Source: a virus
UHGV virus genome: UHGV-0211740
Strand: one strand, 5' to 3'
DNA length: 64,000 nucleotides
The notes below the pieces were generated by a model that saw only the letters and a list, made by a program, of their open reading frames with translations, ran no database searches and was not told where the DNA came from. The position numbers were made by a program, and so were the translations under genes. Within the stretch, counting starts at the first letter, position 1. Every line of letters starts with the position of its first letter. Below, piece by piece: positions 6,060 through 62,714 of this stretch.

Positions 6060-6668
6060 CTAAAAATTTTCTATCGGTGTTTTTGAAGATAAAGCTAAAA
6101 CTATCTTATTCTCAATTCTTCGTAATCCTAATAGCAACCTACTATCATCTACAGTTTTAATCAAGTCTCTAAGAAGTTGCAGTTTACATTCTAAGTATCT
6201 CATGTGTGCCTCAATCTGCGTGGGGAAGGTTCCAAGATAAACCTGCGTGTCCTTAACCCCATCTTTGCAATAGGCAGCAAAAGATGGGCCTTTTCTTCTT
6301 ACTCCCATCAAACACTCCCCTCTTTGCGGCATCCTTGCTACAAAGAAGTTGTTTATTTCCCGGGGAACAAAAATACACGCTTCTGGGCAGTATATAAGAT
6401 TATTCTCGAAGAGAATATCTTTATCTAAAAATTTATCCCGCCAATCTTGTTTTTCCATCCAACGCTTGAAGTTGCTGAAGATTTTCCATTCTTCACAAAC
6501 TTCTACCATAGCATAAGCTTCAAATTTCTTGTTTTTAAGGTAGCACCTCCCTAGCATATTTGACCACGTCATATAAAAAGGACACATTATTCTCTTTCCA
6601 GTATCCTTGTCCAAAACCCTGACAGGATAGTCTGCATCATTAACACCAACACCATGTACAAGTTTCAT
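6060..6668 (-). CDS. putative homing endonuclease-like protein with AP2-type DNA-binding region
   Basis: 202 aa; segment KDGVKDTQVYLGTFPTQIEAHMRY fits the AP2 pattern (LGTF.T.EEA..AY) common in phage HNH/AP2 endonucleases; N-terminal GVGVNDADYPV motif. Confidence 0.4.
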   Translation of the reverse strand: MKLVHGVGVNDADYPVRVLDKDTGKRIMCPFYMTWSNMLGRCYLKNKKFEAYAMVEVCEEWKIFSNFKRWMEKQDWRDKFLDKDILFENNLIYCPEACIFVPREINNFFVARMPQRGECLMGVRRKGPSFAAYCKDGVKDTQVYLGTFPTQIEAHMRYLECKLQLLRDLIKTVDDSRLLLGLRRIENKIVLALSSKTPIENF

Positions 6669-33373: not shown

Positions 33374-35971
33374 ATGCGTATTCAACACAACATTGATAAC
33401 GTATTTCAGATGATTGAGGGGCACAGGAAGTGCCTCGATAATAACACAGGTATTACCAACACCACTACACAAAATAAGCTAGTAAACCCTGATGGTCTTA
33501 TAGCTGCAGGGTGGGCAGGTAATAAGATAAACAATGATTGGGCAATGCATGAGGCCCAAGCTGTGTTGATTCTGGGGTACATTGAAGCATATAGGGCATC
33601 GAAAAGCGATTTCTATCTGGACAGGGCAAAAGAGGCTTGGGAAGCTTACAATAGTCATCTCTTGGGAGTATACGCAGTAGAAAGTAAAATGCAAAGACTA
33701 TCCCACTACCCGTTATCTACTGATGGGGTTCCATCCCATGGTGGGTTTAAAGATGTGGTGGTGTCTTTTAACAAAGGTAGAGGAAAAATTCCGGCGGGAT
33801 CTCCGACATGGGGTGAATACCTGGATAAAGCATTCCAGGCGTATAACGGTGTGTTGGGAAGAAACACAGTTGATGCGGATGTTTACGGCGGCACAGATGC
33901 TAACCCCAACTGGACAACATCCGGATTAAGTTGGTGGGTTGAATGGTATATAGCGTGGGACGGTAACCGCTATTGGGCCAACGGCAGCATAGCTGACAGT
34001 GGGCACACATCTGCAGAGTTTGGCACAATACAGCTGCAAGATAAGGGCGTTACAGGTAGCCATAAGGTAACCTACTGTGTGAGATTGCCTCAAGAGCAAG
34101 GTGGATCTGTGATACCTTCAGGATCTCCAGTAGTTGTAAACCCTATAAACGTGGTTGCAGATAATCAGGCTCCGGAATTGGACGGAGAAGAGATGTGGTG
34201 TGACGCTTGTTATCAACTCTACTCTTTGACAGGCGAGGAGAAGTATTACACTGCGTTTAAACAGTCTTACGACAAGCTGCTTAATTTCAGTGATATAAAC
34301 GCCTACGACAAACTGTTTAGAAAGACCACGTTGATTAAGGCACCGTTTACAGATGGTACTTGTCTTGTTGCAGGAACAGTTCCTGCTATGAGCAGGGACA
34401 GTGACGGATATATCAACTTTAGAATGAACGCACGCCAGCCCTGCGAGATAATTCAAAAAGGTACCACCTACAAAATAGGTAGAGATACTGAAATTGTTAT
34501 GAATTTCGGGGGAGAAGGTGTTCTGTTCCAGCCTCATTTCATCATTAACGATGGCAACAATAATAAAAAACAATACAGAATAGGGGTTCCTTTTGGTGCG
34601 GCAGATGTAACAGAGGTAGTTGCCAAAGTTACTGATTTCGTCGAGGTGGTGGGGAAGGATGGTAACCCGTACCTCCTGCCTGAGGAGGAGAACATTGTCG
34701 TAACTGGTGGCGCTAGTGTTAGTATGCAATACGCTACTGACATTTACAACCACTCTGACAACTTCTCCCGTTGCAATATAGCAAAAGGTAAAGTAACTTT
34801 CAATTTCGGAAGAGAGATTTCTTTAAACTCAGTGACTTACCGATCAGATGATGAAATGGTAAGAGTCAAATTCCTTGACAAAGATCGTTGGTTATGGTAT
34901 GCTGATCTATATGCTACTAACGGACAATGGGTAACAGAAACTCTTACTTTAGGGGATTTCAAACTAGACCCAACACAACCTCATCACACCGAGGAGGAGA
35001 TTAAGCCTTTCTTTGCTAACACCAAAGGTATTACCTCTGTAGATTTCAGTCTGAGCGATAGACAGATAGGAAATGGCCTGTTTGATCTGTATTGCGTCAA
35101 TACGCTGCCTCAATTCTATATTGCAGATATGGATGCTTACCTAATCTGGTTTAGTGTATGGATGGCAAGCAAGACAGAATCGGTTGCTAAAGTTGGCGAT
35201 TGCTATGTCAGAAACTACAAGCAAGGGGCATACAGACACACTCCAGGTGTGTTCCCTGCAGGGAAGGTGATAGATAAGGAAAGTTATCTTCTGGAAGAAA
35301 AGCCAAATTGGCCCTACCCAGGCATGCAATACCCAGCGGTATATTGTATGGGCGCGGAAAACATAGATCGCCTCAGGTTGTCAAATACAATTGGGTTTAT
35401 GTACGACTCTCAAGTTTGGTATAATAACACATTTAAAACCGAAGGACCAGTCGCATCCCGCTACGTGTGGCAGAGAGGTAATGAGGGATTGTCTGGTTGG
35501 TGGGAGATGGTAGATAACTCTAAACTCCAGTCAAGATCTTTTGTTGCTGCGTGCCGCACAATATATGAGCTCAAGAAACATAAAGAGCCTGTTGATGAAA
35601 AACTTTTCCTGTTCTGCCAGAGATGGGCATGGTTCCTCAACAGATTCCAATCATCTCATTCTGGAAATCTTCCCACAGACTTTAACACCTCTGGAGGATA
35701 TTCTTATCAAGACAGAGGAGACAGGATGTGGGTGGTCGGTGAGTGGCTTGCAGGTTGCTGCTGGTTAGGCTTGTGTGGGTATTCAGAGACAATACCTCAA
35801 ATAGATATTGTTGTAGAAGCTTGCATGAAGCTGCTGCAAAAGCACCACTTCATTAATGGCGATAATGTTTTAAACGGCTGCTGGGCAGTTTCTGATCCGG
35901 TAGGCTATCACTCTGGCGAAATCCTTCGCGGTCTAGGCCTTTATGCTCAATACCGTGGATTGTACCTTTAA
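33374..35971 (+). CDS. putative tail spike / glycan-degrading enzyme-like protein
   Basis: 865 aa, very Trp/Tyr/Asn-rich; ATG overlaps the stop of the adaptor gene (TAAGATG); enzymatic role is a guess from composition. Confidence 0.35.
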   Translation: MRIQHNIDNVFQMIEGHRKCLDNNTGITNTTTQNKLVNPDGLIAAGWAGNKINNDWAMHEAQAVLILGYIEAYRASKSDFYLDRAKEAWEAYNSHLLGVYAVESKMQRLSHYPLSTDGVPSHGGFKDVVVSFNKGRGKIPAGSPTWGEYLDKAFQAYNGVLGRNTVDADVYGGTDANPNWTTSGLSWWVEWYIAWDGNRYWANGSIADSGHTSAEFGTIQLQDKGVTGSHKVTYCVRLPQEQGGSVIPSGSPVVVNPINVVADNQAPELDGEEMWCDACYQLYSLTGEEKYYTAFKQSYDKLLNFSDINAYDKLFRKTTLIKAPFTDGTCLVAGTVPAMSRDSDGYINFRMNARQPCEIIQKGTTYKIGRDTEIVMNFGGEGVLFQPHFIINDGNNNKKQYRIGVPFGAADVTEVVAKVTDFVEVVGKDGNPYLLPEEENIVVTGGASVSMQYATDIYNHSDNFSRCNIAKGKVTFNFGREISLNSVTYRSDDEMVRVKFLDKDRWLWYADLYATNGQWVTETLTLGDFKLDPTQPHHTEEEIKPFFANTKGITSVDFSLSDRQIGNGLFDLYCVNTLPQFYIADMDAYLIWFSVWMASKTESVAKVGDCYVRNYKQGAYRHTPGVFPAGKVIDKESYLLEEKPNWPYPGMQYPAVYCMGAENIDRLRLSNTIGFMYDSQVWYNNTFKTEGPVASRYVWQRGNEGLSGWWEMVDNSKLQSRSFVAACRTIYELKKHKEPVDEKLFLFCQRWAWFLNRFQSSHSGNLPTDFNTSGGYSYQDRGDRMWVVGEWLAGCCWLGLCGYSETIPQIDIVVEACMKLLQKHHFINGDNVLNGCWAVSDPVGYHSGEILRGLGLYAQYRGLYL

Positions 35972-36006
35972 CATAAGGGGGCTGTTTGCCCCCTTCAGGA
36001 GAAAGA

Positions 36007-38487
36007 ATGGCTGATATTAAAGTTGTCAGAATTGAATCTCTTCCTGCCACCACAGCAGTGGCAGAGGATGATTACCTGGTTGTTCAACAACCAGACCTGA
36101 CCCGTCGTGTAAAAATTGGCGATGTTGTCCATGTGGATGGGACTGTTTCTCATGTGATCTCCTTTAAGGAAGGTGGTAAGTTAAATGGCCCAATGGATTT
36201 TGCCTACTTCGAAGAGGAAGACCTCTACCTGCGTTGGAAGGGCGAATTCCCGCACACTGTTCCTGCACTGTCCTCACCATACTCTGATGGCGGTATTACT
36301 GATGCCACATGGATGGTATATACAGACCCTTCCTTAAGAGAGGAGCTGGAATCAACAATTGGCGCATCCATGATTATGACAGCCGAAGGGCAGTCTGTCC
36401 AGGATGTAATGGATGTTACAGTTAAGACAGCCAACGATGCTAAAGCGCTTGCACAGCGGGTGGATTTTGGCACTGTGCACACAGTGGGTGATGTTATTCA
36501 CCTGGATAATTTTGTTGGCCCTGCAGTTATTGAAGAGGGAAGAACCACCAACTATCCTTCTGAAGCCACTGGTGAAAAATTTCTGAACGGTGTGGTATCT
36601 CGTCGTGATACTACAACTGTTGATGGCATTTTCCGTGGCGCTACCTCTGGAGCTATGTACACCATTGCAGTAACCAACGGTGTCGCAACAACAAAAAGAA
36701 TAGCCCTTCGTGATGAATTTAAACGCCTGGAGGCAAGCAACCCAACAAGAACAGTTATCCGTGCTGGAGATGATTTAAACACGGCAGGGTACTTGCAGCT
36801 TGATGCAACAGGCCGTTGGGGTATGTGGAACCAACAAACAGCTTCGTGGCAACCTCTTGCTATAGAGCAAGGCGGTACAGGGGCCAGAGATGCCGCAGGT
36901 GCACGTATTAACTTAGGGGCTTTCTATAAGCAACGTGCAGCCCTTGAGCCAAATTTCAATATCAATAACTTGACTGGTAATCAGGATGGTGTATACTACC
37001 AGCCGATGACTGCTTATGCAACCGAGGCAAATGGTTACCCTGCAGGTTCTGGTGCTGGTCACTTGATTGTTTGGCAGAACAATGCTAACGGCGGTACAGG
37101 TTGTCGTCAGGAATACTACCCGTTCTCTAACGTGGATGTTTGGTATCTGAGAACCTACCAAGCCAACACAAACCAGTGGACTGCATGGCAGCCGATGGTC
37201 AGACCTCGTAACGATGATACCTTTAGAGCGCACATCGGTCTTGGTTCCAGAAATTCCCCTACCTTCGGGCACCTTTACCTGTCTCAAAGCTCTGCGGATG
37301 TTAAGTCAGCATCAGGTATTGTTCACGGAGACAAATACAGTGCTGACGGCGTTCTTGAGCATGGGTATAGAATTTACTCCGAGGTAAGAAACGACAATAA
37401 GGCTTGGTTGACAATCCACCTCCACAAAGGTGCAAAAGGGTCTGAAACTCATAGATATTTAGGCTTCCGTGAAGACGGTGTGTTAGATTGTCCTAAATAT
37501 ATGCAGGTTGGTGATCTGAACGGTCAGCTGGCAAACTGGGGACTTGGAGAATGGATCCGCAGTTCAGGAGCAGAAAGAGGTTTCTGGGGATCCAAGAAAG
37601 CCGCCAAGATGGTCATCTGGGATGGCGGTATGGATGAGCAAGGTGAAGGCACTCTGGAATGGGGTGTTTATAACAACCGCAAGGCTAAATGGGAACCTTT
37701 GCCGATAGGTTGCGGTGGCACCAGTGCTAGGACTGTGGGAGATGCCCAGGCACAATTCAGAATCCCTCTTGCAGCAGGTGTCAGACCATATATAAACCTG
37801 CCTAGAACTGCAGCGATGCAGGATGGCAAGTATTATCCGATTATTGTCAGAACAGATCCTAACCATGCGCCAACAATCGGGACAGATTTAACCATCGTTA
37901 CCAGATCTTCTTCTGGCAGCGATCCTATGAACTGTGCTACACTGCAGTGCCACTACAGAACTGGTGGCTGGACTGATCGTGGTGACTTCTTTACCGGGTC
38001 GATAAATTTCTACCAGAAGGAGAAGGCGATACTTGGGTGCGTTGCTCCAACAAGGGGTAAACAAGAGTATGTTGCGTTCTATGTAGAGGCACGTGCCTTC
38101 CCTGTAACAGTGTATGCCAGCGCTGACGTAATAGAGGTGTCAACAAGAGAGGCAGACTGGCAGGTTGGCAATGTAACAGACAACCAAGACGGTGTTAAAT
38201 TCTGTGCACCTCTAGCATCTGCTGACTTGAATCTAGCAATCAAAGGTGACAATGTAACAAACACTCGACCTCTGGCTGAATTTAATGGTGTAACAGGTTT
38301 CTACACCAATCAGTGGATGTATCGTGGGTCTTCTGACAGATATTTCCTGTCCAATAAAACAGAGTTTGGCCTGACAGAGTTATGGTGCAACGGTCTTAAC
38401 TACATCTGCCCAGGTAGTCAGACTACTCGAAAAGCACTGTTCTCTAACGCAGGGTTCCAGGCTGATAGGAAAGAACAGAGGATCTGA
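36007..38487 (+). CDS. side tail fibre protein, lambda Stf-like
   Basis: 826 aa from ATG 36007 (AGGAG RBS); segment YYPIIVRTD...SDPMNCATL...GGWTDRGDFFTG...YQKEKAILG matches the conserved lambda Stf region from memory (YYPVVVMRS...GDPMNNCEF...GGWTDRG...NNERAILG). Confidence 0.6.
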   Translation: MADIKVVRIESLPATTAVAEDDYLVVQQPDLTRRVKIGDVVHVDGTVSHVISFKEGGKLNGPMDFAYFEEEDLYLRWKGEFPHTVPALSSPYSDGGITDATWMVYTDPSLREELESTIGASMIMTAEGQSVQDVMDVTVKTANDAKALAQRVDFGTVHTVGDVIHLDNFVGPAVIEEGRTTNYPSEATGEKFLNGVVSRRDTTTVDGIFRGATSGAMYTIAVTNGVATTKRIALRDEFKRLEASNPTRTVIRAGDDLNTAGYLQLDATGRWGMWNQQTASWQPLAIEQGGTGARDAAGARINLGAFYKQRAALEPNFNINNLTGNQDGVYYQPMTAYATEANGYPAGSGAGHLIVWQNNANGGTGCRQEYYPFSNVDVWYLRTYQANTNQWTAWQPMVRPRNDDTFRAHIGLGSRNSPTFGHLYLSQSSADVKSASGIVHGDKYSADGVLEHGYRIYSEVRNDNKAWLTIHLHKGAKGSETHRYLGFREDGVLDCPKYMQVGDLNGQLANWGLGEWIRSSGAERGFWGSKKAAKMVIWDGGMDEQGEGTLEWGVYNNRKAKWEPLPIGCGGTSARTVGDAQAQFRIPLAAGVRPYINLPRTAAMQDGKYYPIIVRTDPNHAPTIGTDLTIVTRSSSGSDPMNCATLQCHYRTGGWTDRGDFFTGSINFYQKEKAILGCVAPTRGKQEYVAFYVEARAFPVTVYASADVIEVSTREADWQVGNVTDNQDGVKFCAPLASADLNLAIKGDNVTNTRPLAEFNGVTGFYTNQWMYRGSSDRYFLSNKTEFGLTELWCNGLNYICPGSQTTRKALFSNAGFQADRKEQRI

Positions 38488-39806
38488 TCAACAACACCTT
38501 TACCTCTAAATGTGGCAATGGTGCCGCGCTGAAAGGTCAGGCAGAGTTCAGATCTACTCCAGAGGCTGGTCAGGTTATTGTTCGTGATGTTGTAGGCACA
38601 GCCCATAGATTCTACAATTTCAACAAAGATGGCACTTTCTCAGCCCCTGGTGGTTTTGTATGCCACACGGGTGGTGACTGGAACAACCAGTTTGGGCCTA
38701 ACAACCCGTCAAAAATAATGGCTGGTAATGTCAATGGGCCTGAGGGTTCGATGGTCGTTGGTGGATTGTCTGTGGCGTTTTCTGGAAACTATGCTTTCCA
38801 AATGGCTGGTCGCCTTGATCGATTATACACCAGGTCTATCGAGGGAGGTAACCATAGGGCGTGGAACAAAGTCATACAACACAGAGGCCAGGGTCTGGGG
38901 ACAGACGATCTTAATAGCTATGATGGAACTCGTGACGGTATCTATCATCAGGGTGCAAATTCTGACGCACTCACATCCCGTCATTATCCTGCTCCGTACG
39001 CTGGTACGCTGATTGTTTATCAGAACACTGCTAACCAGTTGACAGGGTGTGTGCAGGAGTATATAACCTATTTTGGTGACAGGTATACTCGTGCTGGCAA
39101 CACGAATGGTGAAGATTTTGTTTGGGAAGAGTGGAGACACGATGCGGGTAAGGGAATCCAGTTAAGACCTAATTACACTTTTGGTGAAACCAGTAATCAA
39201 CTGGAAATTCATGTCGGTGCTAATGGTCTTCCCTCCAACGCAGATGGCTTACCTAAGAATGATGCTGTACTCCATTATTGGGGTAACGGCAGCACAGGGG
39301 ATCGTCCAAACGTGTTAGAGTTTAAGGTTCGTGACGAGTCTCAAGCAAATTGGGTATGGCATTGCGGTACCTTGCCAGATAACTCAAGATATCTTTCTGT
39401 AAATGGTGCTGTGAATTGCACATCTGTCAATCAGAGTTCTGACAGAGACCTGAAAGATAACATATCTGTTATTCCTGATGCGTTAGAAGCTATCCGGAAG
39501 ATGAAGGGTTATACTTACACTCTTAAAGAGAACGGTATGCCTTATGCAGGTGTTATAGCACAAGAGGTGCTTGAAGCGCTGCCGGAAGCAGTTAGCTCTT
39601 TCGTGCAAAGAAAGGAAATCCCAAACCCTGATCAAGATGGAACTCCTTTGATAACAGAGGAAAGATTCTACAGCGTGGATTACGCAGCCGTAACAGGCTT
39701 GCTTGTCCAGGTTTGCAGGGAACAGGATGATAAAATAACCGCCCTTGAGGAGCAGGTTAAAAAATTGACAGAGGTTGTTACTGGGTTGCAAGAGAAATTG
39801 AAGTAA
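38469..39806 (+). CDS. tail fibre C-terminal segment with S74-type intramolecular chaperone domain (no own start codon upstream of 38718)
   Basis: Frame open from 38469; protein-like sequence with no ATG/GTG/TTG until 38718; C-terminus SDRDLKDNISVIPDALEAIRKMKGYTYTLKENGMPYAGVIAQEVLEALPEAV fits the fibre auto-chaperone signature; contains a repeat of the GTLIVYQN.AN..TGC.QEY domain also present in the 36007 protein. Confidence 0.55.
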   Translation, partial: ERTEDLINNTFTSKCGNGAALKGQAEFRSTPEAGQVIVRDVVGTAHRFYNFNKDGTFSAPGGFVCHTGGDWNNQFGPNNPSKIMAGNVNGPEGSMVVGGLSVAFSGNYAFQMAGRLDRLYTRSIEGGNHRAWNKVIQHRGQGLGTDDLNSYDGTRDGIYHQGANSDALTSRHYPAPYAGTLIVYQNTANQLTGCVQEYITYFGDRYTRAGNTNGEDFVWEEWRHDAGKGIQLRPNYTFGETSNQLEIHVGANGLPSNADGLPKNDAVLHYWGNGSTGDRPNVLEFKVRDESQANWVWHCGTLPDNSRYLSVNGAVNCTSVNQSSDRDLKDNISVIPDALEAIRKMKGYTYTLKENGMPYAGVIAQEVLEALPEAVSSFVQRKEIPNPDQDGTPLITEERFYSVDYAAVTGLLVQVCREQDDKITALEEQVKKLTEVVTGLQEKLK

Positions 39807-39813
39807 CTGTTTT

Positions 39814-39843
39814 GCCCTCGCTTCGGCGGGGGCTTTTTGTTTG
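39814..39843 (+). terminator. rho-independent terminator
   Basis: GCCCTCGC-TTCG-GCGGGGGC hairpin then TTTTTGTTTG. Confidence 0.65.
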
Positions 39844-62234: not shown

Positions 62235-62714
62235 TCATGGCTCTTTCTCCGGTTCAGGATCTGGGTAATCTTCAATAATAAAAGGCCATCCATTACGCTT
62301 TGCGTCAGACTTATACTTAATCTCCTTCATTGCGAACTCTAACTGATTTTTAGCAGGAATGCAAGCCGGAGAATCATCCACCCAGATGTCAGGGTAGATA
62401 TCGAACTGTGCCAAGTAGGCTGCCTTTTGTACACCGCCTGTGTAGAACACACCTACATCCAACTCCTTGCGCCAATACTCAATGTCCACGTTGTCTTGAG
62501 TGATGAACCGAGAAGTCACAAGGTATACTGTCCACCCTTCCTTTTTCAAGTCCTTAATCAGGCGGGAGAAGATGAAAGGACTCGCATTAAACGTTCCATC
62601 AAAGTCAATGGCAATGATGTGTGTGCCGTGGCGAGTCTCATATGGATTGCTCGTGGTGAGATTGCTGTAGTTAAAAGGGACCTCTTCCCCGCAGTAGCTG
62701 TAGTCCATATTCAC
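62235..62714 (-). CDS. HAD-superfamily phosphatase (nucleotidase or polynucleotide 3'-phosphatase-like)
   Basis: 159 aa; HAD motif I IIAIDFDGT, motif II VYLVTSR, later acidic motif IWVDDSP. Confidence 0.5.
   Translation of the reverse strand: MNMDYSYCGEEVPFNYSNLTTSNPYETRHGTHIIAIDFDGTFNASPFIFSRLIKDLKKEGWTVYLVTSRFITQDNVDIEYWRKELDVGVFYTGGVQKAAYLAQFDIYPDIWVDDSPACIPAKNQLEFAMKEIKYKSDAKRNGWPFIIEDYPDPEPEKEP

Follow-up and report, generated by a model that had tools for sequence, protein, structure and literature searches.

A lateral tail fibre gene split across two frames in an rV5-like Vequintavirus from human gut virome data: a probable recent loss-of-function allele

Split tail fibre genes and self-chaperoned fibres

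Laboratory lambda is viable with a broken side tail fibre gene (stf) because the fibre is accessory: orf401 and orf314 of lambda PaPa are, as Hendrix and Duda reportedly described in 1992, a single stf that is split by a frameshift when compared to Ur-lambda. A different type of fibre carries an S74 chaperone, which normally drives trimer folding and afterwards cleaves itself off, the Ser...Lys dyad of its S-D-x-x-x-K motif being catalytic. Fibres and spikes of this type (K1F endosialidase, T5 pb1 and S16 gp37; PDB 3GW6, 6F45) exhibit a C-terminal PF13884 domain with this motif and a terminal helix, and keep the chaperone in frame with the fibre body. In case of Vequintavirus rV5, gp41 is a protein of 1272 aa that was detected in the virion proteome and whose C terminus is like that of the K1F endosialidase chaperone (PMC3606486). 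Vequintavirinae possess three sets of lateral fibres, the gp41-type gene being among the strongly variable ones (PMC8594841), and infection of K-12 maps to a different fibre and to the LPS core. Here, we analysed a stretch of 64,000 nucleotides (the window) from an rV5-like Vequintavirus that was assembled from human gut virome data (as a metagenome assembly, TPA MAG) and in which a tail fibre gene lies across two reading frames (Table 1).

Gene identity and layout

By sequence comparison, the two ORFs are collinear halves of an rV5 gp41-type lateral tail fibre gene (PHROG 6578). Both halves matched this family in a profile search: the N-terminal part covers positions 35–750 of 1210 (E = 0), and the distal part matches over three stretches (E = 6e-166), the best of which spans profile positions 932–1202. 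Residues 1–822 of the BP9 fibre align to 36007–38463 with 92% identity and residues 825–1270 to 38469–39803 in the -1 frame with 91% identity; since the latter alignment runs in frame through the stretch between 38469 and the ATG at 38718, this stretch is real coding sequence and not a chance open frame. Synteny is also maintained, with the gene placed between those for an 865-aa glycosidase-like protein and a 196-aa protein: the flanks are conserved in WM, EduardKellenberger, Murica and BP9, and in each of these phages a single 3813-nt CDS is annotated at this place. rV5 gp41 and its Vequintavirus orthologues (Murica gp40, EduardKellenberger bas59_0026, BP9 WXX17762.1) occupy the same slot, show 85–93% DNA identity with the window gene and share with it the N-terminal Tail_spike_N domain, the internal repeat and the C-terminal S74 chaperone. 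However, the fibre of the intact relatives is one unbroken ORF of 1264–1272 aa, whereas the window gene is not a single ORF, since a 1-nt deletion and two substitutions interrupt it after codon 820.

A sequence-only reading of this DNA had located the end of the first ORF, the extent of the -1 frame, the lack of a start codon in it until 38718 and the 19-nt overlap, and every one of these coordinates was confirmed on the sequence. A TTG is present at 35986, upstream of ATG 36007. The -1 frame is closed ahead of the distal opening by TGA 38463–65 and TAG 38466–68, and from 38469 until ATG 38718 it contains no ATG, GTG or TTG, with near-cognates only (CTG 38484, ATC 38487, CTG 38529, ATT 38577 and ATA 38715). 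Any -1 ribosomal shift or compensating +1 insertion would need to fall within the stretch that is open in both frames.

Table 1. Features of the split fibre gene in the window
Feature	Position	Strand	Description and evidence
Proximal fragment, gp41-type lateral tail fibre	36007..38487	+	826 aa; ATG 36007 to TGA 38485-38487
Tail_spike_N (TSP1/Gp66-type) N-terminal domain	36142..36315	+	Pfam PF18668, 38 bits against a cut-off of 25
Repeat motif, copy 1	36958..37125	+	..GAGHLIVWQNNANGGTGCRQEY..; BLASTP of N-terminal part against distal part
Compound lesion	38464..38472	+	missing C and two substitutions; alignments with homologous DNA and the intact proteins P0004 and P0010
Out-of-frame read-through tail of proximal ORF	38464-38484	+	last 6 codons (DRKEQRI), ended by TGA 38485-87
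Stretch open in both frames	38469..38487	+	19 nt, GAAAGAACAGAGGATCTGA
Distal fragment of the same gene, -1 frame	38469..39806	+	445 codons; stop 39804-06
Repeat motif, copy 2	38907..39071	+	..YAGTLIVYQNTANQLTGCVQEY..; BLASTP against N-terminal part; BP9 alignment
Peptidase S74 intramolecular chaperone, then C-terminal helix	39438..39803	+	Pfam PF13884, SSDRDLK motif
Terminator-like hairpin and T-run	39814..39843	+	directly 3' of distal stop

Pfam identified only Tail_spike_N and Peptidase_S74 in the fibre. The former is presumed to be the attachment domain of the fibre, and its region matched PDB sequences in the N-terminal parts of tailspike and fibre chains. The proposal that the distal part ends in an S74-type chaperone was borne out by PF13884 at distal residues 324–375 (53.2 bits against a gathering cut-off of 22): S324, D325, R326, L328 and K329 of its SSDRDLK motif are invariant among 36 homologues, and the motif aligns to SSDRRIK of PDB 6f45, a 'long tail fiber distal subunit'. 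A repeated domain shared by the two parts, which had likewise been proposed, was recovered by BLASTP between residues 318–373 of the N-terminal part and distal residues 147–201 (45% identity over 56 aa, E = 2e-9). Natural 617-aa alleles of the fibre exhibit their junction exactly at the copy-1 repeat motif. For the repeated motif, 'pyocin knob', the NCBI name for distant homologues, is a candidate lead; neither half was matched in an NCBIfam search. For the distal 445 aa, an AlphaFold2 monomer prediction with a 36-sequence alignment reached a mean pLDDT of 56.8 and a pTM of 0.34, which is too poor for a fold search. The Murica record has a terminator annotated at the place homologous to the hairpin downstream of the distal stop.

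The lesion and its possible origins

Compared to homologous DNA, one base (C in the homologues) is absent between 38464 and 38465; it is present in all ten independent homologous DNAs, which remain in one frame and read through at the lesion (..GCA TCG GAA GGA ACA GAG..). The lesion-free counterpart string is ..GCTGCATCGGAAGG.., against which the window shows two substitutions in addition to the deletion: C>A at 38467, which generates TAG 38466–68 in the repaired frame where homologues have a Ser codon (TCG/TCT/TCA), and G>A at 38472, by which a Gly codon (GGA) becomes an Arg codon (AGA) in the same frame. The ancestral codons at the lesion were inferred from the P0004 and P0010 protein sequences and from more distant DNA. 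Restoring the missing C alone would leave the in-frame amber codon. All other indels in the gene relative to four homologues are multiples of 3, and the repaired protein differs from the intact P0010 protein (1266 aa) at 5 residues only, with the distal 443 residues of P0010 differing from the repaired distal part only in the two substitutions of the lesion. This near-identity indicates that the break is very recent, and for this reason the clean distal ORF is uninformative on expression: it still looks perfect because there was too little time for decay. Three changes within 10 nt of an otherwise near-identical gene are unusual for a simple point mutation and would need a complex event.

The explanation that we favour, at a probability of roughly 0.8, is that the fibre gene carries a recent and genuine inactivating mutation, making it an ordinary loss-of-function allele and not a programmed frameshift. 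The sequence-only reading had left a programmed shift, a genuine frameshift mutation and a sequencing error side by side; the evidence selects the second of these, a 1-nt deletion relative to intact relatives. Its comparison with the frameshifted stf of laboratory lambda stands insofar as a single-base deletion splits one fibre ORF into two and leaves the distal part without its own start codon at the junction, but not as regards the gene, which is of the rV5 gp41 type, or the lesion, which is compound and comes from gut virome data, whereas that of lambda comes from a laboratory stock. Unlike lambda, the window phage is a myovirus with several fibre sets, and its fibre uses an S74 chaperone in cis where lambda Stf uses the separate Tfa; the label 'Stf-like' for this fibre is a functional analogy only.

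It is unlikely that the break is an artefact of sequencing, amplification or assembly and that the true phage genome has an intact single ORF. In favour of an artefact, the window is a metagenome assembly and other 'split' versions of the fibre gene in public data are artefactual: the split gene of A51.2 was rejected as a pair of separate genes, being due to an exact 55-nt tandem duplication, and the short 'homologue' P0033 was rejected as a separate gene since it derives from a 100-N gap in an ENA scaffold. Against it, the same lesion recurs in Logan contigs of two runs, with 100% identity over 10.5 kb for SRR7892471 and over 35785–38628 for SRR7892473. Judging from the accession range, both runs appear to share one study, the Cameroon gut virome of Yinda et al. 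2019, seemingly with random amplification, so that common contamination or a single phage population may underlie both and their independence is incomplete. The lesion context is also devoid of a homopolymer, the three changes occur together, and the missing base combined with the amber codon that its restoration leaves behind is evidence against a simple indel miscall. Furthermore, comparison of ~70 BP9 CDSs with the window revealed the fibre gene to be the sole frameshifted one across 64 kb, the only other split gene being TerL, which is interrupted by an endonuclease-bearing insert. The exact lesion had no match in IMG/VR, JGI metagenomes or GTDB genomes, and the JGI metagenomes were also without a match to the intact junction of the nearest type.

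We consider it very improbable that the distal part is made alone from ATG 38718 (362 aa) or ATG 38751 (351 aa) as a functional product, for example a free receptor-binding trimer or a trans-acting chaperone. Gene callers annotate both of these ORFs, fibres of one and of several polypeptides are both known in phages (PMC8594841), and a lambdoid prophage does carry the module as a gene of its own, encoding 500 aa (GpJ, 924 aa, 88 aa, 500 aa, integrase). Independently initiated homologues, which the sequence-only reading had regarded as decisive, are thus found in the lambdoid prophage lineage, but there are none in Vequintaviruses, where Met 38718 is internal in all intact homologues. A product starting at this position would miss the first ~83 residues of the module together with the short N-terminal segment of the stand-alone genes, and at the place matching the start of those genes the window lacks both a start codon and a Shine-Dalgarno sequence. 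Moreover, ATG 38718 itself is not preceded by a Shine-Dalgarno sequence (..caaaaataATG), no promoter-like site is present on the + strand between the halves, and there has been too little time since the break for any adaptation. In a protein search with the distal part, the module was present in many E. coli prophage fibres; the closest full-length clusters were not among the matches listed.

Least credible of all is a programmed -1 ribosomal frameshift or transcriptional slippage within 38469–38487 yielding a full-length fibre with its chaperone: while the overlap is short and just ahead of the stop, SD-like AGGA/GAGG strings are close by and weak re-pairing of the Lys codon in AGG AAA G is conceivable in the -1 frame (GAA, via G.U), there is no X XXY YYZ heptamer in GAT AGG AAA GAA CAG AGG ATC TGA and no A or T run in the overlap, the predicted fold of the 95 nt downstream is not distinctive when compared to shuffled sequences (MFE -27.9 kcal/mol, z = -1.17; 23/200 shuffles as stable), the phage's own tRNA-Arg(UCU) makes it unlikely that AGG is a hungry codon, near-identical relatives are intact and none of the ten homologous DNAs conserves the two-frame arrangement.

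Consequences for the fibre and its annotation

With a genuine inactivating mutation as the preferred reading, the lesion at 38464–38472 would shift the frame such that translation from ATG 36007 stops at TGA 38485–87 after 826 residues. At its N terminus the predicted product would still have the attachment domain, followed by the proximal shaft, but it would be devoid of the distal ~443 residues, which carry the receptor-binding tip in addition to the second repeat domain and, at the C terminus, the S74 chaperone. The S74 chaperone is encoded in another frame than the 826-aa product and is not fused in cis to the fibre C terminus, where other S74 fibres keep it in frame. Given the role of S74 chaperones, the gp41-type fibre set is presumably absent from the virion or non-functional on it. 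The phage probably tolerates this loss because its other fibre genes and receptor-binding proteins are intact: comparison with the BP9 CDSs indicated that every other tail and fibre gene in the window is intact.

Truncation of the gp41-type fibre is not confined to the window. The same gene has independently acquired an amber codon (GAG>TAG at codon 544) in a phage otherwise identical to A51.2 (ENA ERZ14213571 NODE_22; Logan SRR18825471_385), in which the fibre is likewise truncated in an otherwise intact Vequintavirus; the called ORFs are of 543 aa and 665 aa and, unlike the lesion in the window, the cause is a single G>T nonsense change with no frameshift. Two independent and easily revertible truncating alleles could mean that Vequintaviruses switch fibre sets, with truncation of the gp41-type set being recurrent and adaptive and not accidental, and point lesions switching one of three sets off and on in hosts; we regard this as a doubtful idea of low probability. 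As a minor variant, low-level -1 slippage at AGG-AAA-G might supply sub-stoichiometric amounts of full-length fibre.

In the GenBank record of the window's contig, the 826-aa product is DAU99061.1 ('tailspike protein', an exact match) and the 362-aa ORF from 38718 is DAU99030.1 ('endosialidase chaperone'). These entries are halves of one broken fibre gene, and the annotation should read pseudogene or disrupted gene, not two proteins. This is otherwise a routine case in which a phage with multiple fibre sets has had one accessory fibre gene knocked out, and for host-range prediction the window phage should be treated as being without the gp41-type receptor-binding tip.

Identity and two-frame layout of the fibre gene

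The window is an rV5-like Vequintavirus, with an identity to OX460980 of about 95–96% outside the fibre gene and 92.7% inside it. In WM, EduardKellenberger, Murica and BP9 the syntenic slot, flanked by an 865-aa glycosidase-like protein on one side and a 196-aa protein on the other, holds one annotated 3813-nt CDS each (1270 aa; 'lateral tail fiber protein' or 'tail fiber protein'). Gene order from the tape measure gene identifies it as rV5 gp41, a 1272-aa protein seen in the virion proteome, whose C terminus resembles the K1F endosialidase chaperone (PMC3606486). PHROG 6578 is matched by the proximal and the distal part alike; in Pfam, the former has a Tail_spike_N domain near its N terminus and the latter a Peptidase_S74 domain near its C terminus, where the sequence-only reading had seen such a chaperone. 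By sequence, the gene belongs to the rV5 gp41/PHROG 6578 family and the S74-chaperone fibres, although the window allele lacks the single ORF and the chaperone in cis expected of members.

Features of the window located by coordinate
Feature	Coordinates	Strand	Remarks
Proximal fibre ORF	ATG 36007 to TGA 38485–38487	+	frame 1, 826 aa
Distal fibre part, -1 frame	open 38469 to stop 39804–39806	+	preceded by TGA 38463–38465 and TAG 38466–38468
Six tRNA genes	11660–12468		Arg-tct, Tyr-gta, Ser-tga, Thr-tgt, Met-cat, Pro-tgg
Large terminase gene (split)	13569–15999
BP9 TerL residues 1–142	13569–13994		99% identity
BP9 TerL residues 143–515	14878–15996		99% identity
216-aa ORF in TerL insert	14153–14803		PHROG endonuclease VII families, E = 1.9e-32
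202-aa ORF	6060–6668	-	absent from BP9 between two flanking conserved genes
76-aa BP9 hypothetical protein	62535–62708	-	aligns over first 58 residues only

Re-reading of the sequence bore out the earlier coordinates for both frames, as well as the absence of an early distal start (ATG 38718 is the earliest ATG, GTG or TTG in the -1 frame), the overlap of only 19 nt open in both frames (38469–38487) and the repeat common to both parts (N-part 318–373 against distal 147–201; 45% identity over 56 aa, E = 2e-9). An in-frame TTG lies upstream of the proximal ATG, at 35986. The BP9 fibre aligns in two different frames, residues 1–822 to 36007–38463 and residues 825–1270 to 38469–39803, and hence the stretch before Met 38718 is homologous coding sequence rather than a frame left open by chance. 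GenBank contains the exact proteins of 826 and 362 aa (DAU99061.1 and DAU99030.1, MAG TPA Caudoviricetes), which group with full-length proteins of 1264–1270 aa.

Nature and age of the lesion

Against four homologues, one base is absent between 38464 and 38465, the sole indel in the gene that is not a multiple of 3. In the comparison with intact homologues proposed at the outset, all 10 independent homologous DNAs are single-frame and carry the extra base, reading ..GCT GCA TCG/TCT/TCA GAx GGx ACA GAG GAT.. at the position where the window reads GCTG-ATAGGAAAGAACAG. Parsimony favours an alignment that pairs the deletion with two substitutions, C>A at 38467 and G>A at 38472; restoring the C alone leaves a TAG at codon 38466–38468 (Ser in relatives), and thus the lesion is compound, which is more than a simple miscall of one base can explain. 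The conceptually repaired protein shows five differences from an intact 1266-aa relative, P0010 (T188A, A430E, K671N, stop/Ser 821, R823G), and its 443 residues downstream of the lesion are identical: such near-identity indicates that the gene was broken very recently. Whether the distal ORF is expressed cannot be read from its intact appearance. Of the three options in the sequence-only reading, we therefore favour the genuine mutation (probability about 0.8), a recent compound frameshift that inactivates an accessory lateral tail fibre gene, over a sequencing error or a programmed shift.

That the lesion is an artefact rather than a real allele appears improbable. It recurs identically in Logan contigs from two sequencing runs, SRR7892471 (10,512 nt at 100% identity to the window) and SRR7892473 (identical across 35785–38628), although these runs, which we infer from their accession range to stem from the gut virome study in Cameroon (Yinda et al. 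2019), are not fully independent of one another. The lesion context contains no homopolymer, and a tblastn check of assembly quality with ~70 BP9 CDSs revealed only two that are split, the fibre gene and the insert-interrupted large terminase, so the assembly is not indel-prone. The terminase insert (~883 nt) looks like an intron or homing-endonuclease insertion; the terminase is listed twice in some GenBank relatives too. Elsewhere, the AP2-like motif 'YLGTFPTQIEA' suggests that the 202-aa ORF may be a free-standing homing endonuclease.

Expression of a separate distal gene from ATG 38718 was rejected, as there is no Shine-Dalgarno sequence and this Met is internal in all intact relatives. 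On the + strand the sequence between the fibre halves shows no promoter-like site, and the distal stop is directly followed by a strong terminator, in agreement with one transcription unit. An independently initiated homologue, which had been named as evidence for such a gene, does exist in a lambdoid prophage (order: GpJ, 924 aa, 88 aa, 500 aa, integrase), but the 500-aa gene begins ~35 residues upstream of the break-equivalent point and has a short N-terminal segment of its own that is absent from the window distal part. This stand-alone S74 gene (L016 5001–6503; ENA ERZ27237434 k141_90782) adjoins the prophage integrase and shares about 42% identity with the window distal module across 99% of 445 aa; the module is common to many E. 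coli prophage tail fibres.

A programmed -1 frameshift was likewise rejected, since two of the three features tested for such a site are lacking: the 19-nt overlap (GAT AGG AAA GAA CAG AGG ATC TGA, zero frame) contains no X XXY YYZ heptamer or homopolymer run, and the two-frame layout is found in none of the 10 homologous DNAs. For the third, downstream RNA structure, the 95 nt after the overlap fold no better than shuffles (z = -1.17). The phage encodes tRNA-Arg(UCU), and thus AGG decoding need not be slow; at the tRNA-cluster site BP9 has five annotated tRNAs, without Ser.

Other interrupted and shortened alleles

In laboratory lambda, stf, an accessory side fibre gene, is split by a one-base deletion; this is the closest analogue in mechanism. 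A second, independent truncation of a gp41-type fibre is found in ENA ERZ14213571 NODE_22 (L017 2192–5998) and in Logan contig SRR18825471_385 (L018): the gene differs from that of A51.2 only by G1630T (GAG to TAG, codon 544) and is called as 543 aa + 665 aa. In A51.2 itself (L007; GenBank ON286973.1, 3696–3805) the record lists two 'putative tail proteins' for the gene, owing to an exact 55-nt tandem duplication; with one copy removed a 1268-aa ORF is regained, and thus the split probably arose as a k-mer overlap artefact of the assembler. In one ENA scaffold the gene is split by a 100-N gap.

Natural 617-aa alleles (L020 3001–4854, ENA ERZ28615013 scaffold_63; proteins P0034 and P0036) occupy the same syntenic slot. 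In them the N part runs straight into the distal part at GAG(H/T)LIV, the repeated motif, a junction that suggests an in-frame deletion through recombination between the two repeats. Everything between the repeats is deleted and the tip and chaperone are always retained, which is consistent with the C-terminal module being the part that a functional fibre cannot do without.

Predicted effect on the fibre and its tolerance

The 826-aa product would retain the attachment domain and proximal shaft and would lose the second repeat domain, the distal tip and the S74 chaperone, whose SSDRDLK motif (invariant in 36 homologues) is intact in the distal part. In endosialidases and T5 pb1 the S74 domain is reportedly required in cis for trimer folding (Schwarzer 2007, Schulz 2010, Garcia-Doval 2015), and by analogy the truncated fibre probably misfolds, or at best forms a stump unable to bind a receptor. 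Four observations would make such a loss tolerable: Vequintavirinae carry three sets of lateral fibres, with the gp41-type gene among their highly variable genes (PMC8594841); K-12 infection relies on the deacetylase-domain fibre and the LPS core (PMC8594841); every other tail or fibre gene of the window is intact (tblastn with BP9 CDSs); and the natural 617-aa alleles dispense with all that lies between the repeats, yet never with the tip and chaperone. The break in the fibre gene is ordinary biology, and matters chiefly for correcting annotation.
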